Made by a program: the position numbers and the translations under genes. Shown here piece after piece: positions 36,156-59,397 of a stretch of DNA of 64,000 nt. Within the stretch, counting starts at the first letter, position 1; the number at the start of each line of letters is the position of its first letter. Origin of the DNA: Candidatus Nealsonbacteria bacterium (GTDB lineage: Bacteria; Patescibacteriota; Minisyncoccia; Minisyncoccales; JANBVM01); contig CP179887.1 of assembly GCA_047456295.1 (NCBI GenBank), forward strand, positions 111,159-175,158, read 5' to 3'. Under the pieces are notes generated by a model, which saw only the letters and a program-made list of their open reading frames with translations, did no database searches and was not told the DNA's origin.

Positions 36156-37277
36156 ATGTCTTTAGTGTTATACCGCAAATATCGTCCTCAGTCTTTTAGT
36201 GAAATGATAGGTCAGGAACATATTGTTAAAACCCTGACCAATGCCATTTCAAGGGAAATGATTTCCCATGCTTATTTGTTTTCAGGACCCAGGGGTTCAG
36301 GAAAGACCAGTTTGGCCAGGCTTTTGGCTAAAGCTGCCAATTGCCAAAATAGGAAAGATGGAGAATTTGAACCCTGCAATAAATGTTCTTCCTGTCTGGA
36401 AATCATGAAGGGAAGGTCAATGGATTTAATTGAGATTGATGCAGCTTCCCATCGGGGAATTGATGATATAAGGGAATTAAGAGACGGAATTCGTTTTGTT
36501 CCAACCAAATCAAAATACAAGGTGTTTATTCTTGACGAATGCCATCAGTTTTCAAAAGATGCAGCCAACGCTCTTTTAAAAACATTGGAAGAACCGCCTG
36601 ATCATGCTATTTTCATTCTGGCCACAACCCAGGTTCATAAAATGATTCCCACAATCATATCGAGGTGTCAAAGATTTGATTTTTGGAAACTCAGGCTGCC
36701 TGAAATAGTTAAAAAAATAACCTTTATATCTAAAAAAGAAGATGTTAAGATTGAAAAGCCAGCTTTGGAACTGATTGCTTTAAATGCCGGAGGTTCATTC
36801 AGGGACGCAGAAAGTCTGCTCAACCAGCTATTTACCCTTCATAGAGATTCTAAAAAAGAGATTAAAGCTGAAGACATTAAGGATTTGTTGGGATTGGTGG
36901 AAATAGAATTGGTCAGCAAATTTACTGATTTTCTCTGTGATAAAAAAACCTTTAAAGCTATAAATTATTTAAATGAAATCAATGAAAAAGGTTTGAATTT
37001 AGAGGAATTTGCCAAAACCCTGGTTAATTATTTAAGAAAAGCATTGATTTTAAAGATAATGGAAGATGGAGGAAATCCTGTTTCTGTACGGGGATATATG
37101 TCTGGTTTGACAAACGAGGAAATCCAAACGCTTAAAAGGCAGGCTGGAAACTTTAAAGAAGAAGATTTGATAAGAACTGTAAATATATTTCTGGAAGCCC
37201 AAAATAAAATGAAATATTCACCAATACCACAATTACCTTTAGAATTGGGGATTGTGGAAGTTTGCGGGGTGGTGTAA
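36156..37277 (+). CDS. dnaX: DNA polymerase III subunit gamma/tau (short form)
   Basis: YRKYRPQSF, HAYLFSGPRGSGKTS, a Cys cluster (CQNRKDGEFEPCNKCSSC), ILDECH and SRCQRF. The last 15 nt overlap tRNA-Gln. Confidence 0.9.
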   Translation: MSLVLYRKYRPQSFSEMIGQEHIVKTLTNAISREMISHAYLFSGPRGSGKTSLARLLAKAANCQNRKDGEFEPCNKCSSCLEIMKGRSMDLIEIDAASHRGIDDIRELRDGIRFVPTKSKYKVFILDECHQFSKDAANALLKTLEEPPDHAIFILATTQVHKMIPTIISRCQRFDFWKLRLPEIVKKITFISKKEDVKIEKPALELIALNAGGSFRDAESLLNQLFTLHRDSKKEIKAEDIKDLLGLVEIELVSKFTDFLCDKKTFKAINYLNEINEKGLNLEEFAKTLVNYLRKALILKIMEDGGNPVSVRGYMSGLTNEEIQTLKRQAGNFKEEDLIRTVNIFLEAQNKMKYSPIPQLPLELGIVEVCGVV

Positions 37278-37333
37278 CGGTAGCACGGGGGACTTTGACT
37301 CCCTTAATCTAGGTTCGAATCCTAGCCCCGCAG
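37263..37333 (+). tRNA. tRNA-Gln (anticodon UUG)
   Basis: Hand-folded 71-nt cloverleaf. Acceptor TGCGGGG/CCCCGCA (U1:A72), discriminator G, anticodon loop CTTTGAC, T-arm CTAGG-TTCGAAT-CCTAG. Confidence 0.85.
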
Positions 37334-37342
37334 CAGGCTTGT

Positions 37343-37363
37343 GCTCGGTTCGAGCGACCGAGA
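37343..37363 (+). repeat. GC-rich hairpin repeat, copy 1
   Basis: GCTCGGTTCGAGCGACCGAGA matches 48397-48417 at 20 of 21 positions. The stem is CTCGGT/ACCGAG. Confidence 0.7.
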
Positions 37364-37372
37364 GGCATTATT

Positions 37373-37393
37373 AACCCGATTTTTCGGGTTTTT
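37373..37393 (+). terminator. Rho-independent terminator after tRNA-Gln
   Basis: AACCCGA (37373-37379) pairs with TCGGGTT (37384-37390), followed by a T-run. Confidence 0.65.
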
Positions 37394-37415
37394 ATTACGT
37401 CAAAAATCGACAAAA

Positions 37416-37444
37416 TTGACAACGAGAAAATAAAAGTATAAGAT
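37416..37444 (+). promoter_or_regulatory. putative island promoter
   Basis: TTGACA (37416-37421), a 17-nt spacer, then TAAGAT (37439-37444). The -35 lies within the tandem repeat AAAATCGACA/AAAATTGACA. Confidence 0.4.
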
Positions 37445-37454
37445 AAAGAATAAT

Positions 37455-37631
37455 ATGGACAAACTTTTAACTATTAAAGAAGTAGCTAAAATCCTCCGAG
37501 TCAGCGAGCGATCAGTTAATCGCTATATTGAATCTGGTCGACTTAGAGCTTCGCGTATTGGTCAATGGAGAATAAAACAAAGTGATCTTAATAAATTTTT
37601 AGATAAATACTCAAATGTCAAAAGAAAATAA
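37455..37631 (+). CDS. excisionase-family / MerR-like HTH DNA-binding protein (58 aa)
   Basis: LTIKEVAKILRVSERSVNRYIESGRLRASRIGQWRI is the typical excisionase-type HTH pattern. Below the ORF-track cutoff. Confidence 0.6.
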   Translation: MDKLLTIKEVAKILRVSERSVNRYIESGRLRASRIGQWRIKQSDLNKFLDKYSNVKRK

Positions 37632-37653
37632 TTGTTAAATTCATTACTAAACT

Positions 37654-39669
37654 ATGGAAAACTTATTACACAATTTAAAAGCTTTGCTTCAAAAAGACGA
37701 GCGCCTCGTGAGCGAAGGCGAGCTTTTGAAGAATAAAATTATTGAACTTGGTTTAAAGTTGGATAAGAACCTCATCAAACTTCTTTTATCGGATAAAAAG
37801 ATGAAAGAAGTATTTTTTGCTGATATACGCCAAACACTTGTTTTTGATAAAGAGAAATTTATTCGCTTTGTTTCAAACAAGCAATTTTTACCCGATTCTT
37901 ATACTGGTTTTAAGAATAAAATTGGATTAACAGTGAAAGATGAATATTTGAGCGAGAAAAAAGAGGTTGTGCTTTCCTGGCCCTATAAGGATTGTGTTTT
38001 GGAAGGCGGAATGACAAAAGAAGACCAAAAGCGCAATGAGATTTTCTGGAATGAGATTTTAGCGCCTGATGAAATCAGCCGCCTACTTGACCCAAAAGTT
38101 TTTACCAACGCAAAAAGGATTGATAAAAAAGGCGAGCATAAATTAAACGGATTTAGAACCGATGAAAATGGAAATATTAAAGACAATCTCATTATTAAAG
38201 GCAACAACCTTTTAGCATTACATTCCCTTAAAAAACGCTTCGCCGGAAAAGTAAAACTCATTTACATCGACCCGCCGTATAATCGCGAAGCTGATGCATT
38301 CTACAATGATAGCTTCAAACATTCTACTTGGCTTACCTTTATGAAAAACCGATTAGAGATAGCAAGAGACTTGTTAAAAGAAGAAGGAATCATTTTTGTG
38401 CAATGTGATGATAGCGAGCAAGCCTATCTTAAAGTATTAATGGACGAAGTCTTTGGAAGAAATAATTTTTTAAATCAAATTTCCTGGGAAAGATCAGCGG
38501 TTGCCGGATTAGGTCAAGGAGCATCTTTTGCTGTCAATGTTACAGAGTGGATAATTGTCTATGCTAAAGATAGAAATTATCTTACTGTAAACACTAACTA
38601 CGTGTTTAAAAAGAAATATCCTTTTGAGAAATTAAGAGGTTATTCAAAAATATTGGTTAACGCTGGTAAGAAAAAATTAATTGAGAGTCTTAAATCAAAA
38701 TCTAGTGGTAAAGATGTAAAGATTTATAAACATTTCAAATATAAAGTTGAAAATATTAATTTTTCTAAATTATCACAGAAAGATATAAATAATATCTACA
38801 GTAAAAATTTTAATATTATATTTAGGCCTTTTCTAGTTCAAAAAGAAAATAAATTTCAACATAGTTTAATAAAAAAAATGGACCGTGGGTTATATTCTGT
38901 CGAATACATCCCTAGCAGAGGCAAAAACGCAGGCAAGAGAACTACACTTTTTTACTGGAATAAAGAATTAGTGGCTTTTTTGAAAAATAGTGCAGCGGTG
39001 CAAGAGGGAAAAGTTATAAAATTAGAAAATCCAAATGACTTTTGGACAAGAGACGAAATTTCAAATGCCGCCCGAGGAGAAGGAGGTATTAAAGGTCTTG
39101 ACAGAACAAAAAAACCAGAAATTTTAATGCAGAGAATTATTGAATGGACAGCTACTTCAAATGATATTGTTTTAGATTTTTTTATGGGAACAGGAACTAC
39201 TTGCGCTGTTGCCCATAAAATGGGACGCCAATATATAGGAATTGAACAACTTGATTACGGAGAAAATAGCGCAGAAGTGAGATTAAAGAATGTTGTCAAT
39301 GGTGATCCAACAGGTATCTCAAAATCAGTCGGCTGGAAAGGCGGTGGAGATTTTGTTTATTTAGAGCTTATGAAATGGAATGAAAATTTTGTAGATAGAA
39401 TTCAGAAAGCAAAAACAAAAGCTGATCTTAAAAAACTCTGGAAAATAATGAAGAAGAAAGCCTTTTTAAGTTATAAGGTGGAGCCAAAGGTTATTGATGG
39501 AAACGCAAAAGATTTTGCTGATTTATCACTAGAAGGTCAAAAGCAATTTTTGCTTGAGTGTTTGGATAAAAACCATCTCTATATCAATTACAGCGAGATT
39601 GATGATGAGGATTATGGAGTGAGTAAGGGGAATAAGAAGTTAAATAAAGAGTTTTATAAATCCTTATAA
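37654..39669 (+). CDS. mod: type III restriction-modification methyltransferase (Mod, N6-adenine, beta class)
   Basis: IYIDPPYN (motif IV) lies upstream of VLDFFMGTGTTCAVA (motif I). A variable central region is consistent with a target-recognition domain. Confidence 0.85.
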   Translation: MENLLHNLKALLQKDERLVSEGELLKNKIIELGLKLDKNLIKLLLSDKKMKEVFFADIRQTLVFDKEKFIRFVSNKQFLPDSYTGFKNKIGLTVKDEYLSEKKEVVLSWPYKDCVLEGGMTKEDQKRNEIFWNEILAPDEISRLLDPKVFTNAKRIDKKGEHKLNGFRTDENGNIKDNLIIKGNNLLALHSLKKRFAGKVKLIYIDPPYNREADAFYNDSFKHSTWLTFMKNRLEIARDLLKEEGIIFVQCDDSEQAYLKVLMDEVFGRNNFLNQISWERSAVAGLGQGASFAVNVTEWIIVYAKDRNYLTVNTNYVFKKKYPFEKLRGYSKILVNAGKKKLIESLKSKSSGKDVKIYKHFKYKVENINFSKLSQKDINNIYSKNFNIIFRPFLVQKENKFQHSLIKKMDRGLYSVEYIPSRGKNAGKRTTLFYWNKELVAFLKNSAAVQEGKVIKLENPNDFWTRDEISNAARGEGGIKGLDRTKKPEILMQRIIEWTATSNDIVLDFFMGTGTTCAVAHKMGRQYIGIEQLDYGENSAEVRLKNVVNGDPTGISKSVGWKGGGDFVYLELMKWNENFVDRIQKAKTKADLKKLWKIMKKKAFLSYKVEPKVIDGNAKDFADLSLEGQKQFLLECLDKNHLYINYSEIDDEDYGVSKGNKKLNKEFYKSL

Positions 39670-39671
39670 TT

Positions 39672-40127
39672 ATGGACAACGAAGAATTAATAAAAATTAA
39701 AGAGGACGCTGTAAAAATTCAGATTAGCGATTTGCAAGATACAGTAAAAAGTATTGAAAATGAAAACATAAAATCTTCATTTATCTTGGGGTTTGCCGGA
39801 ATATTATTTGGTTTAGTTTTTAATAAGGTTGATATTTTACCTTTATGGCAAGCAATAGTTTTTATTATCTTATTGTTAAGCTCAATCAAGCTTGCTTTTT
39901 GGAATATAACAGCAAAAAAAGTCAATATTCACATCAATGTAGATGAAATCTTTGTAAACAACGAACCAAGAAAATGGGAAAAATATCTTAATTTTAAGCA
40001 TCTGCGATTGCGGAAAAATTATCGAAATGCTAAAAACCTGCTTTATCAAAAAGCTAATTATACAAGGTTATCTTTTGTATTATTAATTTTATCAGCGTTT
40101 TTCCTAGCAATAATACAACTTTTTTAA
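39672..40127 (+). CDS. 3-TM membrane protein embedded in the RM operon
   Basis: ATG lies 2 nt after the mod stop. Hydrophobic helices SSFILGFAGILFGLVF, LWQAIVFIILLLSSIKLAFW and LSFVLLILSAFFLAIIQLF. Confidence 0.5.
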   Translation: MDNEELIKIKEDAVKIQISDLQDTVKSIENENIKSSFILGFAGILFGLVFNKVDILPLWQAIVFIILLLSSIKLAFWNITAKKVNIHINVDEIFVNNEPRKWEKYLNFKHLRLRKNYRNAKNLLYQKANYTRLSFVLLILSAFFLAIIQLF

Positions 40128-40129
40128 TT

Positions 40130-40330
40130 ATGAGCACAAACAATAAAAAAATCGAAAAACATATAGGCGAACAAGCGCCTCTTAGTGCAAACAATCAAGG
40201 TTCTGATAATCAAAATCCCGAAAATAAGCCAGATAATGATCAGGAGAATTCTAATCAAGGTACAAGTAATCCATTAAAACCCCAAGAGACGCAAAAAGGT
40301 GTTAATGGTAAAGATATTAAGGAAAAATAA
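40130..40330 (+). CDS. small low-complexity N/Q/D/E/K-rich protein (66 aa)
   Basis: ATG lies 2 nt after the previous stop, and its own stop lies 1 nt before the res ATG. The composition suggests intrinsic disorder. Confidence 0.35.
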   Translation: MSTNNKKIEKHIGEQAPLSANNQGSDNQNPENKPDNDQENSNQGTSNPLKPQETQKGVNGKDIKEK

Positions 40331-40331
40331 T

Positions 40332-42944
40332 ATGCTTTACGAAGTTTTTAATTCATTAAAAGAAGCACACGGGCAGGATTATTTTACTCAACGGATTGAT
40401 GATGAAATAATCCAAAATCTCAATCCAAAATTTGAGTTGCGGGAGTATCAAAAAGAGGCATTGGGGCGATTTAATTTTTATTTTAACGGTTATCAAAAAA
40501 GACAATTCCCGGCCCAGCTTCTTTTTCATATGGCAACCGGAAGCGGTAAAACCCTCATAATGGCGGCTAATATTTTGTATTTATATAATCTTGGTTACCG
40601 CAACTTCATCTTTTTTGTAAACAGCACTAACATTATTGAAAAAACAAAAGATAATTTTTTAAATCCTTTGTCAGAAAAATATCTTTTTGCCCCCAAAATC
40701 AAATTTGGCGAAAAGCAAGCTGAGATTAAAGAGGTTCAAAATTTTGAAGCTACCAATCCGGAAAACATAAACATTATTTTTACTACTATTCAGGGACTAC
40801 ACACCCGCCTAAATTATCCAAAAGAAAACGCTTTAACTTATGAAGAATTTGAAGGAAAAGATATTGTTTTAGTTTCTGATGAAGCTCATCACCTGCAGAC
40901 ATTAACAAAATCTAAGTTAACCAAAACTGAAGAAGGAGAAAAAAGAAGCTGGGAGTATACAATTATTAAAGGAATTTTGAAGAGGAATTCTAAAAATATT
41001 TTGTTGGAATTTACAGCCACGATTGACCTAGGCAATCAAGGCATCAGGCAGAAATACGAAAACAAGATTATTTATCAGTATGATTTGAAGCAATTTCGCT
41101 TGGATAAATATTCAAAAGAAATCGAGGTTTTACAGGCAGATTTAGACCCTATTGACCGAGCTTTGCAAGCAGTTGTTCTAAGTCAGTATCGTAGAAAGAT
41201 TGCCGAAAAAAACAAAATAAGGTTAAAGCCGGTGATTCTTTTTAAGTCCAAAACTATTAAAGAATCAAAAGAAAATTATGAAGGTTTTTTAACGAAAGTA
41301 AAAAAATTATCTTCCAAGGATATACAAGAAATATATTCACGGGCAAAAGACACAAACTTAGAAAAAGCATTTAACTATTTTGAAAAAGAGAAAATAACCT
41401 TTGACAATTTAATTAGGGAGTTACAAGAGGATTTTTCTGAAGAAAAATGTATGCTTTTGGATTCTGAAAATGTTGATGAAGAGAAGCAGTTAAAACTTAA
41501 TTCTTTAGAGAACAAGAATAATGAGATGAGAGCCATTTTTGCAGTTAATATGCTCAACGAAGGTTGGGACGTGCTTAACTTGTTTGATATTGTTCGGTTA
41601 TACGATACGCGGGACGGAAAATGGGTTCACGGTAAGTATAAACCCGGCAAGACAACAATGGGTGAGGCGCAGCTTATTGGCAGAGGGGCAAGATATTTTC
41701 CATTTCAAATAGATGAGATACAGGATAAGTATAAAAGAAAATTTGATGATGATATAGAGAATGATTTGCGCATTTTAGAGGCATTATACTACCATAGCTC
41801 GCATAATCCGGATTATATTTCAGAATTAAAATCCGCTCTTATTGAAATTGGAATTTTACCGGAAAAGTATATTCAGAGAGATTTGTTTATTAAAAATTCT
41901 TTTAAGAAAACTGAATTTTGGAAAAAAGGTGTGATTTTTATAAATGATAGGATACAAAATCCCAGAACGGAAATATTTAGTTTGCAGGACGCAGAAATTG
42001 AAGAGAAATATAGACGCGAATTGAGAACTGGAGAAATTAAAGAAGAAATTATTTTAGATGAAGAAAAAAAACCAAAGTCATCAAAAAACATTGCACGCGG
42101 CAAGATGGTATATAAACTCGATGATTTTGGAGAAAATATAGTTCGAAACGCATTAGATAGGTTTGAGTTTTATAAATTTGGAACATTAAAGAAATATTTC
42201 CCGCATATAAAATCAGTTAAAGAATTTATTTCATCGTTTAATTATTTAGGTAGCGTTGAGATAGAAGTTTTAGGCCCAAAAGACAAAATAAATAAATTAA
42301 CTCCAACTCAAAAATTAGAAATGATTCTATTTGTAGTTAAAAAAATATCAGAACAAGCAAGAACTAATACTTCAGAATTCAGAGGGAGTAAATTATTTAA
42401 AGCAAAAATGTTGCAAGATATTTTTAGGGATAAAGTTTTAAAGTTAGATAAAGATAGTGAAAGAGCGAAAGAAATGGCTGAAGTAAATTTGGCGGATAAA
42501 AACTGGTATGCGCAAACCGATTTGTGTGGTACTAGCGAAGAAAGAGATTTCATTAAATTTATTGATGGATTTATAGAAAAGTTAAGACAGAAATATTCAG
42601 ATATTGCTTTACTTCGCAATGAGAAATTCTTTCAAGTTTTTGACTTTGATGAAGGCAGAGCATTTGAGCCGGATTTTATAATGATTTTGAAAAAGAGAAA
42701 TAGGACAATAAGTATTTATCAGATTTTTATTGAACCAAAAGGAGATCAATTTAAAGACAGTCAAGGCAGGTTTGAAAATTCTAAAGAAGGATGGAAAGAA
42801 AAATTTTTACTTGAAATGGAAGAAAAAGCAGACACTGATTTAAAATTGGAAAATAAACACTTTAAGCTAATGGGGTTGCCTTTTTACAACGAAAAATTAA
42901 AAAAAGATTTCGAGGAAGCTCTAGAAAATAAAATATTAAATTAA
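40332..42944 (+). CDS. res: type III restriction enzyme Res subunit (SF2 helicase plus PD-(D/E)xK nuclease)
   Basis: MATGSGKT, VSDEAHH, FTAT, QLIGRGAR and C-terminal FEPDF...IEPKG. ATG 40332 preferred over the track start. Confidence 0.85.
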   Translation: MLYEVFNSLKEAHGQDYFTQRIDDEIIQNLNPKFELREYQKEALGRFNFYFNGYQKRQFPAQLLFHMATGSGKTLIMAANILYLYNLGYRNFIFFVNSTNIIEKTKDNFLNPLSEKYLFAPKIKFGEKQAEIKEVQNFEATNPENINIIFTTIQGLHTRLNYPKENALTYEEFEGKDIVLVSDEAHHLQTLTKSKLTKTEEGEKRSWEYTIIKGILKRNSKNILLEFTATIDLGNQGIRQKYENKIIYQYDLKQFRLDKYSKEIEVLQADLDPIDRALQAVVLSQYRRKIAEKNKIRLKPVILFKSKTIKESKENYEGFLTKVKKLSSKDIQEIYSRAKDTNLEKAFNYFEKEKITFDNLIRELQEDFSEEKCMLLDSENVDEEKQLKLNSLENKNNEMRAIFAVNMLNEGWDVLNLFDIVRLYDTRDGKWVHGKYKPGKTTMGEAQLIGRGARYFPFQIDEIQDKYKRKFDDDIENDLRILEALYYHSSHNPDYISELKSALIEIGILPEKYIQRDLFIKNSFKKTEFWKKGVIFINDRIQNPRTEIFSLQDAEIEEKYRRELRTGEIKEEIILDEEKKPKSSKNIARGKMVYKLDDFGENIVRNALDRFEFYKFGTLKKYFPHIKSVKEFISSFNYLGSVEIEVLGPKDKINKLTPTQKLEMILFVVKKISEQARTNTSEFRGSKLFKAKMLQDIFRDKVLKLDKDSERAKEMAEVNLADKNWYAQTDLCGTSEERDFIKFIDGFIEKLRQKYSDIALLRNEKFFQVFDFDEGRAFEPDFIMILKKRNRTISIYQIFIEPKGDQFKDSQGRFENSKEGWKEKFLLEMEEKADTDLKLENKHFKLMGLPFYNEKLKKDFEEALENKILN

Positions 42945-42980
42945 AACCTTACGAAATTAATTGAGAAATAAAGAATATAT

Positions 42981-43547
42981 ATGGACTGGTTAAATTTTTT
43001 TTCGCCAATTAATATGATTGAAAAAATAATCAATTGGTTTTTTCGCCCAAGGATTAAAGTAAATTTTGAATATAAGTTAGATCCTGTCAGTGAAAATGAT
43101 TTCTGTCACTTAAGGAGAGATCGAATTACGGGAAGGCTTTGTTGGTTTTTTAGAATGGGTATAGAAAATAAAGGAAGTACAGTTGTAAAAGATTGCGATA
43201 TTAGAATAGAAAAGATTGAGAGAATAATAGAAGAAAAATGTAAAGAAATGAAAAATTTTAGTCCCATTGTATTACATTGGGCAAACATAGAATCCGATGA
43301 ATCTAGGGATTTACATAAAGATACACCAGAATTTATAGATGTAGTATATACCATGGAAGGAGAAAATAATTTTTATATTTTTGCGAAAAGGAAACATATA
43401 GGAGTGGGAAGCAATATTATTTGGCCATCTGGACAATATCGGCTTTATTTAAAAGTTTTGGGAGATAATATAAAACCACATAGAATTACTGTTTTCATTA
43501 ATTTCAACGGGCATTGGGACCAATTGGAAATGAAACTAGAAAGGTAG
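42981..43547 (+). CDS. hypothetical protein (188 aa), no recognisable motif
   Basis: ORF in the same orientation as res, 36 nt downstream. Soluble and beta-rich-looking sequence. Confidence 0.45.
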   Translation: MDWLNFFSPINMIEKIINWFFRPRIKVNFEYKLDPVSENDFCHLRRDRITGRLCWFFRMGIENKGSTVVKDCDIRIEKIERIIEEKCKEMKNFSPIVLHWANIESDESRDLHKDTPEFIDVVYTMEGENNFYIFAKRKHIGVGSNIIWPSGQYRLYLKVLGDNIKPHRITVFINFNGHWDQLEMKLER

Positions 43548-43619
43548 AAAAATGCTATCTGGCCTATTAGAATTTAGGCGAATTTTATTTAACCAATCAA
43601 TTTTAAACAAAACATTTAT

Positions 43620-44009
43620 ATGAGAAAAATTATAATTAATACAGCTAAAGAAATTTCGGCCGAGGAGAAACAAATTCTTAAAAATATTTTTAGAGAAGAA
43701 TCTTTGGAAATTGGAATAAATGCTTCTTTTATGCGTTTTTCTGGGGTAGAAATTTTACCGTTAGTTATAGAACTCTCTGTAACAGCAATCAAGGTGGTGT
43801 TAGGTGGTGTAGCATATGATACTTTGAAAAGAATTGTAAAGAAAATTTTATCAAATCGAAGAATTAAAAGGAATAAAGAAATTATTATAAAAAAGCGAGA
43901 AAAGACTTTTGTTGTTACCTCAAAAGGATTTTATTTAAGAAGTAAAAAGGAAAACTCTGTATTCCGAAATATAGATGAGTTTTTCGAGAAAATGGAAAAA
44001 GGGAAATAA
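43620..44009 (+). CDS. hypothetical protein (129 aa), basic C-terminal half
   Basis: ORF with one hydrophobic stretch (ILPLVIELSVTAIKVVLGGVA). Confidence 0.4.
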   Translation: MRKIIINTAKEISAEEKQILKNIFREESLEIGINASFMRFSGVEILPLVIELSVTAIKVVLGGVAYDTLKRIVKKILSNRRIKRNKEIIIKKREKTFVVTSKGFYLRSKKENSVFRNIDEFFEKMEKGK

Positions 44010-44078
44010 GAACAATTTTATCTTTGGCTTAGAACAAGCAAAAACAAGGTCGAAGAAATTAATTAAGGAATAAAATTT

Positions 44079-44816
44079 ATGGATTCTACTTTTTGGATAG
44101 CACTTGGAAGTATAGGGACTTTTGTTATGGCAATTGCTACATTCATAACTTTATGGCGTTATCAGAAAGAGAAAAGAGAAAAAGAAAATAGGGAAATTAG
44201 TGAAGAAATCATCTTACCCATAAAAGAAAACATAAAAAACTTAATTAATATTTTAAAAGAACATAGAATAGATAATTTTAATTGGGACACCACAAAAAAG
44301 AATAATCCAATTCTTGTTTATAGGCTTTCAGGAGACCTGAAAGCAGATATAGGAAATTTCAATAAAGAGTTTAAAAAATTCGGAAACATATATTACCAAA
44401 TAAAACCAGGATTAGAAGAATTAATTTATTTAGAAATTTTTAAAAGAGCTAGAAAAAAAGCGGCAAAGGAGTTAAAGGAAATAGTTACAACTAATCAAGA
44501 AGTTTTAGCGCGTTCCTATTATCAATGGAAAAGGGGCGGCAAAGCCTTTTTTGTTTCTTTTTATGAGTTGATATTTAAAGACGAAACGCTTAATGAATAT
44601 ATTGATAAAACAAAGAAAGACTCGGAAATCTATAACCAACAAATTACCGATGGGGCTTTTATAATTGGTGGGGTGGGGAAGATTAAAGAATTTAATAAAG
44701 AAGAATTTAATGATATTTACGAAACTTTAAAAAAAGAGACTCAAGAAAATCCGACCCTACAAGAATATATTAATTTTTGGAGAGAAATTTCTAAAAAAGC
44801 ACAAAACCTACTTTGA
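44079..44816 (+). CDS. hypothetical protein (245 aa) with N-terminal TM anchor
   Basis: FWIALGSIGTFVMAIATFITLW, followed by a charged helical region. Confidence 0.45.
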   Translation: MDSTFWIALGSIGTFVMAIATFITLWRYQKEKREKENREISEEIILPIKENIKNLINILKEHRIDNFNWDTTKKNNPILVYRLSGDLKADIGNFNKEFKKFGNIYYQIKPGLEELIYLEIFKRARKKAAKELKEIVTTNQEVLARSYYQWKRGGKAFFVSFYELIFKDETLNEYIDKTKKDSEIYNQQITDGAFIIGGVGKIKEFNKEEFNDIYETLKKETQENPTLQEYINFWREISKKAQNLL

Positions 44817-44913
44817 AGAAAAAAGTTGGTCAAGGCGACTCTTTAAATGGTTTTCTAAAAGGAGGAAGGCTGTTTTAAAAATAATTGTATCGTTTTTTGA
44901 GAAGTAAAATAAA

Positions 44914-45840
44914 ATGAAGAATAAGATAAAACTTATTAGTATAGTTATTGGGGCGGCAGTTTTGGTTTCAGTGGGGTTTGGGTTGGGGAGGCGGTCAATG
45001 TCTTCAGAAATTACGGAGTTGAAAGACAGGGTAGCTTCTCTTGAAGAGCAGATAAAAGTACAGAACCAATTAGGAGAAAAAGTTGAAGAGAAGAAAAAAA
45101 TAGGCCCTACGGGGCCGACAAGATTAGCTACTGTTAATTATGTTATTGACGGAGATACTATTGAAGTGGATGAAGAAGAAAGGGTTCGTTATTTGGGAAT
45201 AAATACTCCTGAGTCAGGCCGTCCATATTTTAGTGAAGCCACCAATGAAAATAAAAAGTTAGTGGATGGGAAAGAAATCAAATTAGAACTTGATGTTCAG
45301 ACCAAAGACAAATATAACCGAACTTTAGCGTATGTTTGGATAGGGGAGACAATGGTTAATTTAGAATTAGTCCGTAGGGGGTTTGCCAATGTTTATACTT
45401 TTCCGCCTAATGTGAAGTATAAAGAGCAGTTTTTAGAAGCTGAACGAGAAGCCAGAGAAAATTGTAGAGGCCTTTGGTATCCTTGTAAAATTGCTGGCGC
45501 TGAAAATGGAATTAAAATCGTAAATATTAATGCTGACGCTCCCGGGAATGATAATGAGAATAAAAATGGAGAGTGGTTAGAGATTAGGAACCAAGAAGAA
45601 AACTCCGTTAGTATGACAAATTGGACAATAAAAGACGAAGCTAATCATATCTACACTTTTGCTGATTTTATTTTAGCTCCGGATAAAAGTGTGTTTATTT
45701 ATTCTGGCTGCGATATTGATACTCAGGAAAAACTCTATTGGCAATGTCCTGAGGGCGAATATGCTATTTGGAATAATTCAGGCGATACAGCTTTCTTAAG
45801 AGACGCCAGCGGAAATTTAGTAGATAGTTATAAATATTAG
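44914..45840 (+). CDS. membrane-anchored thermonuclease (SNase) fused to a lamin-tail domain
   Basis: N-terminal TM and coiled coil. VIDGDTIEV..RVRYLGINTPE, DKYNRTLAYVW, then GEWLEIRN...NWTIKD (LTD-like). Confidence 0.75.
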   Translation: MKNKIKLISIVIGAAVLVSVGFGLGRRSMSSEITELKDRVASLEEQIKVQNQLGEKVEEKKKIGPTGPTRLATVNYVIDGDTIEVDEEERVRYLGINTPESGRPYFSEATNENKKLVDGKEIKLELDVQTKDKYNRTLAYVWIGETMVNLELVRRGFANVYTFPPNVKYKEQFLEAEREARENCRGLWYPCKIAGAENGIKIVNINADAPGNDNENKNGEWLEIRNQEENSVSMTNWTIKDEANHIYTFADFILAPDKSVFIYSGCDIDTQEKLYWQCPEGEYAIWNNSGDTAFLRDASGNLVDSYKY

Positions 45841-46005
45841 AAAAACAGAAGAATAGAAAGAAAACAGGGGTCAACTCTATTTTTCATTAAATTAGTAAAT
45901 ATTTTTTAAATACTGTCCCATTTGTTTTATAAAAATAAAATGAAAAAATGAAAAAAATCAGCGAATTTAAAACCTTCAAAAACAGTCTAAATCTCCCTTA
46001 AAACA

Positions 46006-46020
46006 CTGGTTCGAGACCGA
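46006..46020 (+). repeat. degenerate copy of the GC-rich hairpin repeat
   Basis: CTGGTTCGAGACCGA shares GGTTCGAGA..CCGA with copies 1 and 3. The following GACCGACTAC recurs at 50914-50923. Confidence 0.4.
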
Positions 46021-46041
46021 CTACGGGAGCAGATGAGTTTA

Positions 46042-46078
46042 AAAATCGCCAAGAAGGCGGTTTTTTGGTAGAATAAAA
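46042..46078 (+). promoter_or_regulatory. terminator-like hairpin plus extended -10 (TGGTAGAAT); 37-nt repeat of 7398-7434
   Basis: ATCGCC/GGCGGT stem, then TTTTTT, then TGGTAGAAT. 32 of 37 positions are identical to 7398-7434. Confidence 0.5.
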
Positions 46079-46103
46079 AAAGATAATTAATTAAACCGAA
46101 ATT

Positions 46104-47129
46104 ATGCTGAAATCCTTAAAAAAAGGACATGAATTAGAGGAGAAAGTTGAAAAATATTTTCAGTTAAATGGTTATCAAACTAAAAGAAATGTAGTCTTAG
46201 AAGGTAAATCCGGCGGTAGGCATGAGATAGATATTCTAGCTGAAAAATCAGATGGCGTTACAACAATAAAAATGATGGTAGAATGTAAAGCGTGGAATAA
46301 ACCCATAGACAAGGACGTTGTTTTTAAAGTTAACTATATCGTTAAAGACTTGGGGCTAAATAAAGCAATTATAGTTACATTAAAAGGATATAGAATAGGA
46401 GCAGAAAAAGCGGCTAAAGAATTAGGAATTGAACTTTGGGACGGATATGAATTAGAAAAAAAATTAGGAAAAATTTCAGTAGCGGAATTAGAGATAAAAG
46501 AATTTGAAAAGATTGCTTTAGGATTTCCAGTATTAATAACAAAAAAGGAAGCACATTCTTTTATTAGTAAACAAAGCAGGGGTTTTTGGGGAATGGGAAA
46601 AGAAGAAATCAGAGTATTTAATCTTATCTGGCTTCCTTGTTACTTATTGAAAATTAGTTGTACAAAAACTGAAGGAGTGTTTAGAAGAAAGTCAACGACA
46701 AAGCCTATTTGGAATTTATACGAATCATTAGAAGGTAATTGGTTCTATACATTTGAAGAAATACCAAAAATAGAAAATGTTAAAGTAGAAAACACTTTGC
46801 AACCAAAAATAAAAGATGTCGAGATTATAAAAGAAATACAAAAAATATTTAAAAAATCTTCCGAAGTAGTAACTTTTAAGGCCCAAAAACGTTATGCTAG
46901 AAAACTGGAAAAAAAGGGGATACATTCGCCATTAGTGACTGATATTACATTTGATAATGTAACATATTTGCTTTATCCATTCTTCATTGCTATTCTTAAA
47001 AGAGATGAAAAAGAAAGAATTATAGTTGTAGATGGCGTTATCGGTAAAATTAATAAAAACATTGGTTACGTTTTGACCACAAACCTGAATTACATCATAC
47101 AAAATCTAAAAATGTTGGATGGGAACTAA
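46104..47129 (+). CDS. Mrr-like (PD-(D/E)xK) restriction endonuclease domain fused to an unknown C-terminal domain
   Basis: The N-terminal ~115 aa contain GHELEEKV..YF..NGY, HEIDILA and VECKAW (D...ExK). The C-terminal ~225 aa are unrecognised. Confidence 0.65.
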   Translation: MLKSLKKGHELEEKVEKYFQLNGYQTKRNVVLEGKSGGRHEIDILAEKSDGVTTIKMMVECKAWNKPIDKDVVFKVNYIVKDLGLNKAIIVTLKGYRIGAEKAAKELGIELWDGYELEKKLGKISVAELEIKEFEKIALGFPVLITKKEAHSFISKQSRGFWGMGKEEIRVFNLIWLPCYLLKISCTKTEGVFRRKSTTKPIWNLYESLEGNWFYTFEEIPKIENVKVENTLQPKIKDVEIIKEIQKIFKKSSEVVTFKAQKRYARKLEKKGIHSPLVTDITFDNVTYLLYPFFIAILKRDEKERIIVVDGVIGKINKNIGYVLTTNLNYIIQNLKMLDGN

Positions 47130-47348
47130 TCTTTTCTTCGTCTGCCCAAACACAACTTCAGGACACTTAAACACTTCCTCCCATCTCAAGGTTCTAAAAT
47201 CGTCCACTAGACCGAGCTAAAACAAAAAAGCCCATCGCCGGGCAATTTTTATTACTTGCACTGTCTCTAAAATCGGGCTATCTTGAAAATAGAGAAACAC
47301 ACTTATGGAAGAAAAAGCAAAACAGAAAGAGTTTGAAAAAAAATTAAA

Positions 47349-47375
47349 AGAGGGGTTAAAAGCCCCTCTTTTTTA
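47349..47375. terminator. bidirectional Rho-independent terminator
   Basis: AGAGGGG (47349-47355) pairs with CCCCTCT (47363-47369). It is flanked by AAAA upstream and TTTTTT downstream. Confidence 0.7.
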
Positions 47376-47390
47376 ATTAATGAAAATTGT

Positions 47391-48125
47391 CTATCTTTTC
47401 TTATATGCAGGCAGGGAAGTAATAAGACTGCCAATTTTTTCTCCCCTTACAACCTTTTTCAGGCCGTCAGGCTCTGATAAACCGATAATAAAAATAGGCA
47501 AGTTATTATTCATACACAAAGTGATGGCAGTGTTGTCTAATACTTTTATTTTCCTATTGATAGCTTCCATATAAGTGAGTTGTTCTAATCGTTGAGCTTT
47601 TGAATTTAGTTTTGGGTCATCAGTATAAATACCATCTACTTTGGTGGCTTTAATGAGCACATTAGCGTTTATTTCCATGGCTCGGAGTGCTGCAGCTGTG
47701 TCAGTGGTAAAATAAGGGTTACCGGTTCCAGCGCCTATAATGACAGTATAACCTTTTTCCAATTGATAAATAGCCCGCAGCCTGACATATGGTTCGGCAA
47801 TAGATTTCATTTCAATAGATGTGTGGAGACGGACGGTTGTACCAAGCCTTGTGAGGGCATCGCTAAGAGCTAAACAATTCATTACTGTTGCCAGCATGCC
47901 CATTTCATCAGTAGTGGCTCGGTCCATGCCATGGGCTAAGCCTTTAATGCCTCGCCAAATATTTCCCGCTCCCATAATGATAGCTACTTGAACCCCTATA
48001 CTGTTTACGGCCTTGATTCTGACTGCCAACTCTTTAGCTTTTTCAGGATCAATACCAAAACCTTTAGGGCCTGCTAGAGCCTCTCCTCCTAATTTAAGCA
48101 CAATTCGCTGGTAAATTGGTTTCAT
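47391..48125 (-). CDS. pyrH: UMP kinase
   Basis: VLKLGGEAL, GAGNIWRG and GTGNPYFTTDTAAALRA. ATG at 48125 preferred over the upstream TTG. Confidence 0.9.
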   Translation of the reverse strand: MKPIYQRIVLKLGGEALAGPKGFGIDPEKAKELAVRIKAVNSIGVQVAIIMGAGNIWRGIKGLAHGMDRATTDEMGMLATVMNCLALSDALTRLGTTVRLHTSIEMKSIAEPYVRLRAIYQLEKGYTVIIGAGTGNPYFTTDTAAALRAMEINANVLIKATKVDGIYTDDPKLNSKAQRLEQLTYMEAINRKIKVLDNTAITLCMNNNLPIFIIGLSEPDGLKKVVRGEKIGSLITSLPAYKKR

Positions 48126-48396
48126 ATCTTCTAATTCTATTATAGACCAAGACAAGATTCAAGGTAAAGTGTTGAGACTGTTTCTTGGTCAGTTTGAAAG
48201 AGATTAAGGATTTGTTTATAGCAAAGGAATTTCAGATTATGTTTTTAAGGGACCGGAAGATAACGAAGATATTTTGTGGATAAAACAGGTTTTTTAGATT
48301 TTTTAACCCTTTAGGTTTCTTTTCTTTGATTGGTGGATGAGACTTAGTAAAATTATTGAGAAGGTTTGCATCCGTTTAATGTTAGAGCAACCTTGA

Positions 48397-48417
48397 GCTC
48401 GGTTCGAGAGACCGAGA
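48397..48417 (+). repeat. GC-rich hairpin repeat, copy 3
   Basis: GCTCGGTTCGAGAGACCGAGA matches 37343-37363 at 20 of 21 positions. Confidence 0.7.
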
Positions 48418-48514
48418 CGCGTTTTTCTTTCAAAGTTCTTATCTCGCAAAACGAGTCGAAGTTATACCACCGGGATAAACTAAATTTATTACTACAATCT
48501 ATGAGTAAACCATG

Positions 48515-48542
48515 TTGACATGACATCTTGGTAGAATATAAT
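48515..48542 (+). promoter_or_regulatory. sigma70-type promoter of the glycosyltransferase pair
   Basis: TTGACA (48515-48520), a 16-nt spacer, then TATAAT (48537-48542). An overlapping TGGTAGAAT lies at 48529-48537. Confidence 0.5.
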
Positions 48543-48607
48543 AAGAGCTATACAAAACATTCTGTTATAAAATTCCACTAATAACGGGATTTTAAAACAG
48601 CTTTATT

Positions 48608-49783
48608 GTGAAAATTCTATTCCTCTATGATTTCCCTTTATGGGGGTCAGGAAGTGGTACATATCTCAGGAATCTCATTACTCAATTAGTTAAATTGAAT
48701 TATAAAATAGGCGTTGTCTGTCCAGAAGAACGCCGGTTTTTAGGAGAAAAAATTAAACAATACCCGGTTAGTCTTTCTCAAATTCCAGTCTTCGTCGGTC
48801 ATCCAGAATTAAAAGGAGCTAAAAGATATTCAGAATTGAGCGAAAGAGAAATTACCAGCATTTATAAATCTTATTTGGATACGACCTTGGAGGCAATAGC
48901 AAACTTTGAGCCAGACATAATCCATACCCAGCATCTTTCTTTAATTAGCTGGGTAGCAAGATATGTCAATGCCCTAAAAAATATCAAATACATCATCACC
49001 TCTCACGGAAGTTGTCTATATAATATTCTCTTTGATAAGAGATATCTACCTCTGTGCGAGGATGCAATGAGATTTGCTAAAGCAATCACTGTTGTAAGTG
49101 GAAATACTCGAAGTAGACTTTTGAAAGTATTTGGCAGGCAGTATCTCAAAAACACTTACATAATTCCCGGAGGAGTAGATATGAAGCTTTTTCCTATTCG
49201 ATTAGATACTTCTTCTATAGATAAAAAATACAAACTTAAAGGTAAAAAATTAGTTCTTTTTACCGGCCGGCTTAGTTCAGAAAAGGGAGTGAAATATTTA
49301 GCAAATGCCGCCAAGGAAATTAAGGGAGAAGTCTTTATAGTTGGAGAAGGGCCTGAGAAACCGTATCTTTCTGATCTCATTGCCAGAAAGAAGCTTGAGA
49401 ACGTCCACCTTATAGGATATTTAATGCATGAAAGCTTAATTGATTTTTATTACAGAGCTGACGTCTTTGTTGCCCCTTCAGTAGTTGAAGAGGCTTTAGG
49501 TCTTTCTATTCTGGAAGCAATGGCTGCTAAAACTCCTGTAATAGCCACTAGAAAGGGAGGAATTCCCCTTTTGGTAAAAAGTGGCCACAACGGACTCTTT
49601 GTTAGAGTAAGAAACTCATCGAAAATCGCAGAGGCCTGTAATAAACTATTGAAAAATGATGAGCTAAGAAAAAAAATGGGAGAAAATGCACGAAAAACAG
49701 TTGAAAAAAAGTTTACCTGGCAAAGAACTGCTAAGAAATTCAACAGCCTTTATAAGAGAACTTGTAGGAACAATAGAAAATAA
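48608..49783 (+). CDS. GT4-family glycosyltransferase
   Basis: GTG start. EEALGLSILEAMAAKTPVIA signature. Confidence 0.8.
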   Translation: MKILFLYDFPLWGSGSGTYLRNLITQLVKLNYKIGVVCPEERRFLGEKIKQYPVSLSQIPVFVGHPELKGAKRYSELSEREITSIYKSYLDTTLEAIANFEPDIIHTQHLSLISWVARYVNALKNIKYIITSHGSCLYNILFDKRYLPLCEDAMRFAKAITVVSGNTRSRLLKVFGRQYLKNTYIIPGGVDMKLFPIRLDTSSIDKKYKLKGKKLVLFTGRLSSEKGVKYLANAAKEIKGEVFIVGEGPEKPYLSDLIARKKLENVHLIGYLMHESLIDFYYRADVFVAPSVVEEALGLSILEAMAAKTPVIATRKGGIPLLVKSGHNGLFVRVRNSSKIAEACNKLLKNDELRKKMGENARKTVEKKFTWQRTAKKFNSLYKRTCRNNRK

Positions 49784-49788
49784 AGTTT

Positions 49789-50883
49789 ATGAAAATTCTC
49801 ATTACTGCTCCTCTCACAAGAAAAATTTCTCCAAAAATTACTGCCGCAAGACCAAGAGTTATTTTTGATTTAACTATTGGTCTTCAGAAAAGAAGACATA
49901 AAGTTTCTGTTTTAGGAACAAAAGATAGTTATATTCCAAGAGTAAAAATTATTCCAGTAATTAAGAAGGGATTTTATGAGTTGTCTTCTTCTCTTGAGAA
50001 TCCTTTTTATACCCATACCTCTTTTTTGGCTAAAATGGCAAAAATTCTTGAGAAGATTGGGAATGATTTCGATATTATTCATAATCATTGTTATCCGGAA
50101 TTCATAAATTTACTTGTTGAAAAGAATATTAAAACTCCGATTGTGACAACTATTCACGCCCAAATGACACCCGAATTAGATGATATTTTATCTTTATTCC
50201 CTGATTCTTATTTTATTTGTATTTCAAAAGCAACTAAAAACCTAGCCAAAAAAACAAAAATCTATAGAGTAATCTACAACGGTATAGATACAAGTTTGTA
50301 CAAATTCTCTTCTAAGAAAGAAGGTTATCTTTTATGGATTGGAAGATTGAGTAAAGCCAAAGACAAAAAGGGAAATTTTATGGATCCTAAAGGAGTGAGG
50401 TGGGCAATAAGATTAGCTAAAGAAACTGGTTTAAACCTTCTTTTGGCAGGAAATGTAGAAGATCCAGAATTTTTTGAAAGAGATGTTAAACCTCATCTAT
50501 CAAAGAAAATCAAATGGATAGGGCCGGTATCCTTTGAACAGCCCTTAAGCAAACATGAGGTAGCAAAGTTAATGCAAAAAGCAAAAGCATTTTTGATGAC
50601 CGTTAATTGGGAAGAACCCTTCGCTTTGGTAATGGCCGAAGCTCAATCTTGTGGGACGCCAGTTATTGGATTTGATAGAGGGTCTACTTCCGAACTTGTA
50701 ATTAATGGGAAAACTGGTTTTATCGTTAAACCAAAAGAAGGAATCGAGGGTTTAAAAAGAGCTGTAAGAAAAATAGATAAAATAAACCCCAAAGATTGTC
50801 GAGAACATATCGAAAAAAATTTTTCTATAAAGAAAATGGTAGAAGAATATGAAAAGATTTATTATAAAATTTTAAATAAATAA
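49789..50883 (+). CDS. GT4-family glycosyltransferase
   Basis: EEPFALVMAEAQSCGTPVIG signature. Starts 5 nt after the previous gene. Confidence 0.75.
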   Translation: MKILITAPLTRKISPKITAARPRVIFDLTIGLQKRRHKVSVLGTKDSYIPRVKIIPVIKKGFYELSSSLENPFYTHTSFLAKMAKILEKIGNDFDIIHNHCYPEFINLLVEKNIKTPIVTTIHAQMTPELDDILSLFPDSYFICISKATKNLAKKTKIYRVIYNGIDTSLYKFSSKKEGYLLWIGRLSKAKDKKGNFMDPKGVRWAIRLAKETGLNLLLAGNVEDPEFFERDVKPHLSKKIKWIGPVSFEQPLSKHEVAKLMQKAKAFLMTVNWEEPFALVMAEAQSCGTPVIGFDRGSTSELVINGKTGFIVKPKEGIEGLKRAVRKIDKINPKDCREHIEKNFSIKKMVEEYEKIYYKILNK

Positions 50884-51042
50884 CTCTTTTAAAATGCTTT
50901 CATTTTAGAATCTGACCGACTACCTGGTCACTACTTTTACCTTTTTTAAGCTCAATAACAAGCCACTCTTTATCTTTTTCTCGGTTTTCTATTCTTTTAA
51001 ATCTTTGCTAAAATAATAATAGACTATTTTAATTAAAAACTT

Positions 51043-51642: not shown

Positions 51643-51669
51643 AATTTTTCATTTTGATATATAAAAAAC

Positions 51670-52191: not shown

Positions 52192-52226
52192 AATATAAGT
52201 TTTTGGTTTTCCAGGATTAAAAGATT

Positions 52227-52254
52227 AAGCCCAAGAAAAATTCTTGGGCTTTTT
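52227..52254. terminator. bidirectional Rho-independent terminator
   Basis: Perfect 11-bp stem, AAGCCCAAGAA/TTCTTGGGCTT, with a 3-nt loop and a T-run. It lies between convergent genes. Confidence 0.8.
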
Positions 52255-52283
52255 ATATATAACCACCAAAAATGATAAGGTAT

Positions 52284-54029: not shown

Positions 54030-54209
54030 AAAAATCTTTCCTTAATTCAAAAATTATATTTCTTCTATTTTTGAACTTAATAATATTATAACCCGAAAAA
54101 TCAAAATTGTAAATAAAAGGCTTAATAATAAGTTAAATAATTTGAGTTTATTGTTTTTATTTTGGGTTATTTTTGCTAAAATAACATATATATATTAATT
54201 TAAAAAATT

Positions 54210-54809: not shown

Positions 54810-54851
54810 ATCGTGTAAAATAAAAAATTAAGTTTAAAAAAAAGGAGATGT

Positions 54852-56459: not shown

Positions 56460-56551
56460 AAATACAAATGAAAAAAGTAGATTGGAGAGTTTTAAATTAG
56501 TTCTTTTTTTTATCTTTTTGTTTTGAGCTTTCTCTATCTACAATAAAAAAA

Positions 56552-56578: not shown

Positions 56579-56580
56579 AA

Positions 56581-59377: not shown

Positions 59378-59397
59378 ATATTTAAAATATATATAAG

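Follow-up and report, generated by a model that had tools for sequence, protein, structure and literature searches.

A block of ~9.9 kb in a metagenome-assembled genome annotated as Candidatus Nealsonbacteria (Patescibacteria) extends from the last base of a tRNA-Gln gene to a 32-nt sequence, here called pT, that mimics the 3' end of tRNA-Gln; it occupies positions 37335-47219 of the 64 kb stretch of DNA that we analyzed, hereafter the window. The block is a genuine accessory defense island, and its cargo includes a Type III restriction-modification (RM) operon. We propose that it is probably a cassette placed by site-specific recombination at the tRNA-Gln 3' end, where it forms the tRNA-proximal unit of an anchored cassette array; it is the largest such unit among the loci examined. 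Patescibacteria have tiny genomes and few recognized mobile elements, and how they acquire and shuffle defense and other accessory genes is poorly understood. The last base of tRNA-Gln and pT together define a junction with population-level polymorphism at which gene flux is directly testable, and pT provides a sequence handle for the flexible gene pools of metagenome-assembled genomes, in which such regions tend to break assemblies. On a bolder and less certain reading, set out below, these ultra-small genomes would contain a previously undescribed system of cassette capture.

An accessory block between tRNA-Gln and pT

Is the block accessory? We fetched 160 loci of relatives via dnaX (45-78% identity) and searched them with all of the island proteins using tblastn (individual loci are given below as L numbers). 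The linkage of dnaX to tRNA-Gln is kept in ~130 of the 160, often with the same overlap, and the three genes upstream are kept too. None of the ten island genes was found downstream of tRNA-Gln in any of the 160 relatives. About ten of them carry, 0-7 kb after tRNA-Gln, homologues of window positions 58199-61647 (an HD_3 gene and five neighbors), and in L040 and L116 the HD_3 gene starts at the first base after the tRNA; this stretch is therefore the likely ancestral neighbor, displaced by 20.9 kb in the genome of the window. The linkage of pyrH to tRNA-Gln in L005 was considered as a homologue of the island and set aside, as the genes between are housekeeping genes.

The composition of the block agrees with this picture. 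Its G+C content is 31.4% as compared with 34.8% in the rest of the window, a contrast of ~3.4 points; the 10 kb interval of lowest G+C in the whole 64 kb begins at 37501; and the tetranucleotide distance to the rest of the window reaches its maximum of 22-26 at 38-47 kb over a baseline of 10-15. The compositional dip is modest yet non-random. An original prediction, made from the sequence alone, had read the block as an accessory island with defense-type content, and this reading is supported by the profile, which is not flat and has its G+C minimum and tetranucleotide maximum on the block, by the absence of the block from the 160 relatives despite the conserved dnaX-tRNA-Gln linkage and upstream synteny, and by hidden Markov model (HMM) matches to defense domains. 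The far steeper contrast it had drawn from hand counts (13-33% against 38% G+C) was line-level noise. Its list of contents, namely an excisionase-type helix-turn-helix (HTH) protein, a Type III RM operon, three open reading frames (ORFs) without motifs, an SNase-LTD nuclease and an Mrr-like nuclease, was for the most part confirmed by HMM scans. It had also counted eleven ORFs, all on the + strand. The strand holds for every sizeable ORF; we count ten of at least 58 aa, packed into 37455-47129 with very short gaps, and the only other + strand candidates are mini-ORFs of 23-33 aa at 47119-47220 and 47305-47376. The features of the block and its flanks are collected in Table 1.

Table 1. Features of the island and its flanks, in window coordinates.
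Feature	Position	Strand	Basis or remark
tRNA-Gln(ttg)	37263..37334	+	ARAGORN; Rfam tRNA 65 bits; 15-nt overlap with dnaX stop codon; left junction of the island
Motif M1 (AGGCTTGTGCTCGGTTCGAGCGACCGAGAGGC), dyad CTCGGT/ACCGAG	37338..37366	+	Conserved flank element
Intrinsic-terminator-like hairpin (AACCCGATTTTTCGGGTT + T run)	37373..37395	+	Sequence
Sigma-70-like promoter (TTGACA-17-TAAGAT)	37416..37444	+	10/12 consensus positions; consensus match alone; precedes first island gene
HTH_17 / excisionase-family protein, 58 aa	37455..37631	+	Pfam HTH_17 E = 8e-18; TIGR01764 'excise' 45 bits, cut-off 28.8
Mod, Type III methyltransferase	37654..39669	+	PF01555 N6_N4_Mtase E = 3e-44; PF12564 TypeIII_RM_meth E = 9e-23; PADLOC MTase_III E = 9e-187
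TM151, 151 aa, basic, three hydrophobic segments	39672..40127	+	Hydropathy; PADLOC PycTM E = 7e-6
sm66, small hydrophilic partner	40130..40330	+	Alignment: conserved N-terminal KHIGEQ, C-terminal KPQETQKG
Res, Type III restriction/helicase subunit	40332..42944	+	PF04851 ResIII E = 9e-30; PADLOC REase_III E = 4e-131 over 42-879 of 881 residues
u188, orphan ORF	42981..43547	+	85%-identical homologue just downstream of another Type III RM locus
u129, orphan ORF, one hydrophobic segment	43620..44009	+	Hydropathy
u245, orphan ORF, N-terminal transmembrane helix	44079..44816	+	Weak holin PHROG match; partial homologue directly behind another Type III res
SNase + LTD (lamin-tail-domain) nuclease, N-terminal membrane anchor	44914..45840	+	Pfam SNase E = 3e-23, LTD E = 4e-20; PADLOC candidate 'SNc+LTD' E = 1e-31
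Mrr_cat (PD-(D/E)xK) nuclease + 220-aa C-terminal region	46104..47129	+	Pfam Mrr_cat E = 2e-16; PADLOC PDC-S02 E = 5e-9
pT (aaGGTTCTAAAATCGTCCACTAGACCGAGC)	47188..47219	+	Exact match to 16-nt core of relatives; nhmmer 25 bits, E = 7e-7
Hairpin GCCC-ATCGCC-GGGC with flanking A and T runs	47230..47253	.	Bidirectional terminator-like
pyrH (UMP kinase)	47391..48155	-	Convergent; outside the island, between pT and M2; 65% identity to L005 homologue
Degenerate T-arm-like stretch (GGTTTGCATCC..AGAGC) + M2 (AACCTTGAGCTCGGTTCGAGAGACCGAGACGC)	48364..48420	+	M2 itself 48389-48420

What marks the right edge? The consensus of pT is aaacaGGTTCTAAC(R)TCGTCC-N5-CCNCAGC; one end resembles the start of the T-arm (AGGTTC), and the other the acceptor end of tRNA-Gln. 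The center of pT deviates from the true T-arm in a conserved manner: the 16-nt core, GGTTCTAAYRTCGTCC, is common to several genera, as compared with GGTTCGAATCC in the true T-arm. A profile built from relatives finds a single significant match in the window, at 47188-47219, 59 nt beyond the stop codon of the Mrr-like gene. When the profile (42 copies) was run over 2.0 Mb of the relatives' loci, 62 of the 63 matches lay downstream of tRNA-Gln on the strand of the tRNA, and there were none upstream. In these downstream regions there is one pT per 0.4-1.5 kb, usually after a single ORF and before a terminator. The 61 intervals delimited by pT have a median length of 1.0 kb; 43 of them hold one or two ORFs, and their ORFs are predominantly on one strand (114 + versus 20 -). 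The island of the window is the longest interval in this data set. The arrays can be dense, with seven pT copies in 4.4 kb in L084 and four or five each in L003, L056, L111 and L123, and identical pT subtypes occur in different genomes.

The pT copies of the relatives are mostly followed by an intrinsic terminator, and the sequence of the hairpin that follows pT in the window stands directly 3' of tRNA-Gln in L157, L129 and L105. No conserved hairpin was found in pT itself, which is conserved in sequence, and Rfam gave no match besides tRNA either in the island or in one pT array. The statement in the original prediction that there is no clean duplication of the tRNA 3' end thus needs to be divided. 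A near-exact copy is indeed absent from the window, where the terminal 23-mer with up to three mismatches matches only itself; a diverged duplicate is present at the right edge (E = 7e-7).

The left flank carries elements of its own. Motif M, a 29-nt sequence with dyad symmetry (..GCTCGGTTCGAGNGACCGAGA..), stands directly 3' of tRNA-Gln or of pT in ~20 relatives, and its 17-mer core occurs twice in the window as compared with 0.09 expected. The hairpin behind the first copy, M1, is predicted to shield the island from transcription of dnaX and the tRNA; in relatives, analogous CCCGAGA..TCTCGGG terminators stand behind the tRNA and behind pT copies. The second copy, M2, follows a degenerate T-arm-like stretch beyond pyrH. 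Local alignment of 37332-37439 with 48386-48489 scores 64 (shuffles, 27.6 +/- 4.6), and the site at 48364-48420 may be an older junction. A decayed duplicate of the full tRNA-Gln/dnaX region upstream of M2 was considered and dropped (score 47; shuffles, 45 +/- 7). Likewise, GACCGAG at 47210 was rejected as a third copy of motif M, since its flanks agree at 8/21 positions only, and it is better regarded as the acceptor-like part of pT.

Further repeats and matches of this kind were noted elsewhere. At some junctions a second degenerate repeat (..TCTAACATCGTCC[T/A]G[C/T]CAAAAT[C/T]GGCACC) lies ~60 nt ahead of the canonical pT, as at 13180-13215 and 14367 of L084. The right end of an insertion in L148 (13540-13573, GAAGTAGTATCCGTTTTAATTTT) resembles window 48364-48390 (GAAGGTTTGCATCCGTTTAATGTT), ahead of M2, and this likeness may reflect a second type of tRNA-end mimic. 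A scan of IMG/VR with a pT 17-mer gave ten matches, nine of which are chance matches in coding sequence. The remaining one (36 bits) is a complete pT at 14695-14731 of L185 (UViG_3300009529_003397), a 'viral' contig; it lies close to the contig end, at a point where AT-rich DNA gives way sharply to GC-rich DNA. Genes on the GC-rich side include one for an SDR oxidoreductase, and no integrase was identified; the contig could be a chimera.

Junction activity, a proposed recombinase in trans and rival explanations

The tRNA-Gln 3' end is an active junction in the relatives. Seven pairs of loci are near-identical upstream (88-100% over ~1.2 kb before the tRNA end) and are unrelated in sequence from the first base 3' of the tRNA onward. 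For example, L124 and L125 are identical at 199/200 nt upstream and L061 and L131 at 100% over 1.2 kb, and both pairs diverge at the tRNA end. Similarly, L148 has at the tRNA end an insertion of 2,406 bp that L108 lacks, between flanks that are 93-96% identical. Assemblies also break at this point: of the 92 contigs that terminate no more than 10 kb downstream of dnaX, ten do so between -2 and +5 nt of the last base of the tRNA (P ~ 7e-19).

Which enzyme might act there? As the original prediction stated, the island has no integrase or transposase, and our scans detected no recombinase or transposase domain in any of its ORFs. We therefore infer that the island is now either immobile or mobilized in trans. 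We surveyed 145 ORFs within 2.7 kb of tRNA-Gln at 53 loci, counting a family as recurrent when it had two or more members. The most frequent families were those of large serine recombinases (Resolvase + Recombinase + Zn_ribbon_recom), found at 4-5 loci, and these are the sole recurrent recombinase family; Phage_integrase was not among the recurrent families of the 145 ORFs. Large serine recombinases were located in L009, L017, L055 (12476-14071) and L117 (14386-15813). In L055 the recombinase-bearing segment runs from the 3' end of a second tRNA gene to a pT; this tRNA gene, which ARAGORN misses, is split by a group I intron (12216-12441; Rfam 64 bits) that is also found in L056. The related locus L056 carries different cassettes from that same tRNA-end base onward. 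L055 thus weakly ties serine recombinases to this type of site. The absence of an exact tRNA repeat in the window is in keeping with serine recombinases, which do not create long duplications.

We propose that circular or excised cassettes bearing pT would recombine with the tRNA 3' end. Recombination would regenerate the tRNA, leave pT at the distal side of the incoming cassette and shift older cassettes outward. The recombinase would be supplied in trans, and the best candidate is a large serine recombinase because no other recombinase family recurs at these sites. The mobility of the island, which the original prediction had left unexplained, is in this way largely accounted for by its tRNA-Gln and pT bounds together with the arrays of the relatives; the part that stands is that the island itself carries no recombinase. 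More tentatively, and with a confidence that falls somewhat short of even, we suggest that Nealsonbacteria-like Patescibacteria keep integron-like arrays anchored at tRNA-Gln and apparently at other tRNAs, whose cassettes would be captured through pT by a recombinase acting in trans, possibly one of the large serine family, with the gene pair TM151 and sm66 described below as a new RM-guarding cargo.

Several observations weigh against recombinational capture. No recombinase was found in the island or, as far as tested, in the 64 kb; tblastn with four large serine recombinases of relatives gave no match in the window. At three of the four recombinase loci there is no canonical pT in the fetched DNA, so that serine recombinases are tied to pT only loosely. 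The pT of the window agrees poorly with its own tRNA end (4/12 positions, ungapped), and a comparison of the pT 3' half with tRNAs shows no significant preference for the tRNA of its own host over those of others (permutation p = 0.28). With M2, a second repeat for which capture does not account, the housekeeping gene pyrH comes to lie between two sites that resemble junctions. The cassettes carry their own terminators, and apparently promoters, unlike integron cassettes. Finally, the best dnaX identity that searches of genome and metagenome collections gave is 78%, so the empty site of the source genome was not observed.

Could the block be the relic of a more familiar element? A decayed tyrosine-integrase island or prophage remnant in tRNA-Gln, whose integrase and attachment repeat have eroded and whose tRNA fragment has decayed into pT, would account for a tRNA-adjacent island with an excisionase-like first gene, and partial-tRNA repeats at the flanks are its classical signature, as in the tycheposons discussed below. 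We nevertheless consider this origin improbable: pT is a conserved variant with a core shared across genera, unlike the product of random decay; large serine recombinases, found four to five times, recur among the 145 ORFs near tRNA-Gln and Phage_integrase does not; and the island contains no phage structural genes.

Two further readings were weighed. An ordinary break in synteny would require only that the chromosome was rearranged after dnaX-tRNA-Gln and that the defense genes are lineage-specific. No relative is closer than 78% in dnaX identity, pyrH of L005 also lies ~8 kb after tRNA-Gln with metabolic genes between, and the stretch at 47.4-58.2 kb is native-like in composition yet non-syntenic, all of which would suit such a break. 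It is quite improbable, however, in view of the unique pT exactly at the right edge, the confinement of pT to the flanks of tRNA-Gln, the strain divergence and contig breaks at the exact last base of the tRNA, and a composition deviation that coincides with the block. Alternatively, pT might be a transcription or RNA-processing element, such as a tRNA-like punctuation or terminator module, reused in a locally expanding region rather than a recombination site. It is conserved in sequence, and is almost always followed by an intrinsic terminator, and the trailer of the tRNA contains motif M. Yet the acceptor stem has no 5' partner in pT, the sequence upstream is A-rich and Rfam gives no match, and an RNA element explains neither why near-identical strains differ at the exact tRNA end nor why identical pT subtypes appear in different genomes; we regard it as very improbable. 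Capture at the tRNA-Gln 3' end by site-specific recombination is thus the explanation that we prefer.

Type III RM operon, TM151-sm66 pair and other cargo

The RM operon is intact in its HMM matches and catalytic motifs, and its organization is that of a Type III system. Mod combines the methyltransferase core with the N-terminal domain and has the motifs DPPY and FxGxG, read from its translation. Res combines a superfamily 2 (SF2) helicase with a PD-(D/E)xK nuclease; GSGKT, DEAH and PD..EPK are visible in its translation, the nuclease motif by eye only. The genes from mod to res form one operon, on a shared strand with gaps of 1-3 nt, in which TM151 and sm66 separate mod from res. The most likely start of Res is the ATG at 40332, right behind the sm66 stop codon; the GTG at 40299 that opens the longest ORF is less likely. 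The set of Mod, transmembrane protein, small protein and Res recurs at 73-85% identity in an unrelated context (L162/L163). In L162, the closest homologous Type III locus (6372-9857), Mod is cut to residues 1-170 and 568-669, and the surroundings of the TM151 pair have gained insertions of four unannotated ORFs and of an AAA_14 ATPase gene.

The HTH gene lies 22 nt upstream of mod and has its own promoter-like site. Its product matches PADLOC mad1 (E = 2e-10) and excisionase/regulator families of PHROG. It is probably a regulator of the operon and possibly a recombination directionality factor; of the two, regulation seems the likelier role. Membership of the MADS system is not indicated, as NF047737 scores 29 bits against a cut-off of 80 and no other mad model matches.

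What do the two interposed genes do? TM151, which is identical to the NCBI protein ACKKMR_00980, belongs to a small family: it has 45 close homologues, and 1.84 billion proteins yielded just 61 cluster representatives, almost all of which stand alone at a length of ~150 aa. TM151 and its small partner adjoin RM genes in all eight contexts examined, often with overlapping stop and start codons, and the RM systems are of types I, II, IIG and III. For example, L162/L163 have the Type III lineage of the window in an unrelated neighborhood, with the pair again between mod and res. Elsewhere the pair accompanies a Type IIG enzyme after tRNA-Ser, together with a 70-aa remnant of the Mod C-terminus; a Type I system with a KAP NTPase; two different Type II pairs, one of which lies directly behind tRNA-Trp with a pT-like site after it; a Type I/IIG-like locus; and a probable Eco57I-like methylase.

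In L175 (6340-8760), a 2.3 kb unit consisting of an N6_N4 methylase, an MvaI/BcnI-type endonuclease, TM150 and a 57-aa partner lies directly 3' of tRNA-Trp and is followed by a pT-like sequence (AGGTTCGAGCTTCGTTC..), an arrangement that suggests the same tRNA/pT logic at another tRNA. Separately, the 244-aa proteins P0016 and P0018, which represent 13 and 8 sequences, respectively, join the N-terminal ~93 residues of a Type III Mod in frame to a TM151 homologue, as if a deletion had removed the methylase core.

By analogy with toxins embedded in RM loci, we propose that TM151 and sm66 could constitute a membrane-acting back-up (abortive-infection) effector that is restrained by the RM complex or by sm66. 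The pair would then be a compact candidate 'second-line' defense module that rides with four RM types. PADLOC models of PycTM and two-transmembrane (2TM) effectors match 14 of 20 family members weakly (best E = 3e-7; precomputed matches 'weak' or 'faint'). Against an effector of this kind, the current Pfam PycTM model PF18967 matches none of the 20 members at E <= 1, and no cyclase (PycC) was found in the window or in any of the eight contexts. The pair might instead be a toxin-antitoxin addiction module that stabilizes RM cassettes, or be otherwise unrelated to phage sensing. In favor of this, the pair is made up of a small membrane protein and a small, acidic and hydrophilic partner that are translationally coupled, and it rides mobile cassettes beside tRNAs. 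The association with RM genes in 8/8 contexts and across four RM types points rather to a functional tie to RM than to mobile DNA generally, as does the position of the pair between mod and res in both the window and L162/L163; we therefore consider this alternative unlikely, though a serious contender.

The remaining cargo is less readily classified. The orphan ORFs u188, u129 and u245 have no match in Pfam, NCBIfam or PADLOC; the positions of the homologues of u188 and u245 beside other Type III RM genes suggest that these two may be further RM-associated accessory genes. The SNase-LTD protein may be an extracellular scavenging nuclease rather than a defense protein. The C-terminal half of the Mrr-like protein has no family match in domain scans, and a search of the PDB gave no informative match. 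In the relatives, most cassette ORFs are likewise without a family. Among the exceptions, one L084 cassette (16186-17034) encodes a dUTPase/dCTP-deaminase-like domain fused to dCMP deaminase, and another encodes a GNAT acetyltransferase. Close to tRNA-Gln in L097 (8553-10433) and L114 (4322-6982), LexA (DNA-binding and S24 peptidase) is fused to DNA methyltransferase domains.

Outside the island, the non-syntenic stretch at 47.4-58.2 kb contains pyrH, two GT4 glycosyltransferases, V4R proteins, an NTPase, an ABC exporter and pyrD/pyrF/pyrE-like genes. The NTPase_I-T gene and the ABC exporter lie between two paralogues of 199 aa (51043-51642 and 54210-54809), each of which has its V4R domain at the C-terminus. 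Pyrimidine biosynthesis genes are uncommon in Patescibacteria; here the pyrD-like gene (54852-56459), pyrF (56581-57282), the pyrE-like gene (57279-58037) and pyrH all lie between tRNA-Gln and the ancestral neighbor (47391-58037). The second tetranucleotide outlier of the window is at 24-30 kb. In this part a P-type cation ATPase gene (24349-27009) begins 75 nt past tRNA-Glu (region 24202-27009), with no pT there, and its homologues stand directly 3' of tRNA-Gln in L081 (+16) and L155 (+78). Further tRNAs besides tRNA-Gln may thus serve as anchors for movable units.

Comparison with known systems

As a tRNA-associated island, the block is inserted 3' of a tRNA and has a diverged rather than an exact repeat; its presence is variable and its composition deviant, as judged against distant relatives only, and it has no recombinase of its own. 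Perhaps its closest counterparts are the tycheposons of Prochlorococcus, which form tRNA-anchored islands in streamlined genomes with partial tRNA copies between units; later integrations push older units outward, cargo-only remnants occur, and the recombinases are tyrosine recombinases and, in a minority, large serine recombinases (Hackl et al.; bioRxiv 10.1101/2020.12.28.424599). The arrays described here share with them integration at tRNA genes, tRNA-end repeats, tandem units and a streamlined genome. They differ in that the host belongs to the Patescibacteria, the repeat is a mimic of variant but conserved sequence where tycheposons have plain partial tRNA copies, and most units are single ORFs of 0.4-1.5 kb with a terminator of their own; moreover, the window island has no recombinase or replication module, and no tyrosine integrase was seen.

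In bounding an island without recombination genes by attachment-type sites, the arrangement also resembles cis-mobilizable elements (CIMEs) and the attachment-site accretion of integrative and conjugative elements (ICEs), such as ICESt3 of Streptococcus thermophilus, in which att-flanked segments that lack recombination genes are reportedly mobilized by another element. No ICE or conjugation genes were seen in the loci of this clade, however, and descent by deletion from an autonomous element is only a candidate idea. The resemblance to integrons lies in the single anchor, the mostly single-gene units of one orientation, the short site-like repeat after each, the newest unit beside the anchor, and a cargo rich in small unknown proteins, GNAT acetyltransferases and similar. 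In contrast to integrons, there is no adjacent IntI (dnaX is upstream in all loci), the anchor is a tRNA gene, and pT is not a structured attC. We found no description of such cassette arrays in Patescibacteria in the literature searched.

The RM operon itself is comparable to the mod-res operons of EcoP15I-like systems, with TypeIII_RM_meth (N-terminal) and N6_N4_Mtase domains in Mod and an SF2 helicase and C-terminal PD-(D/E)xK nuclease in Res; it differs in its two conserved extra genes between mod and res and in the dedicated HTH gene upstream. For these extra genes, Ronin (RonA-HsdMS) and PrrC-EcoprrI provide the nearest models: in both, a small toxin gene is either embedded in an RM locus or tightly linked to one, release of the toxin is proposed to occur upon attack on the RM system, and the Ronin toxin is a small transmembrane protein (bioRxiv 10.1101/2023.04.06.535777). 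The TM151 gene is just as tightly linked to RM genes, in 8/8 contexts. It is distinguished by three hydrophobic segments, an obligatory small partner and an association with complete RM systems of four types, and we liken it to these toxins by arrangement, not by homology.

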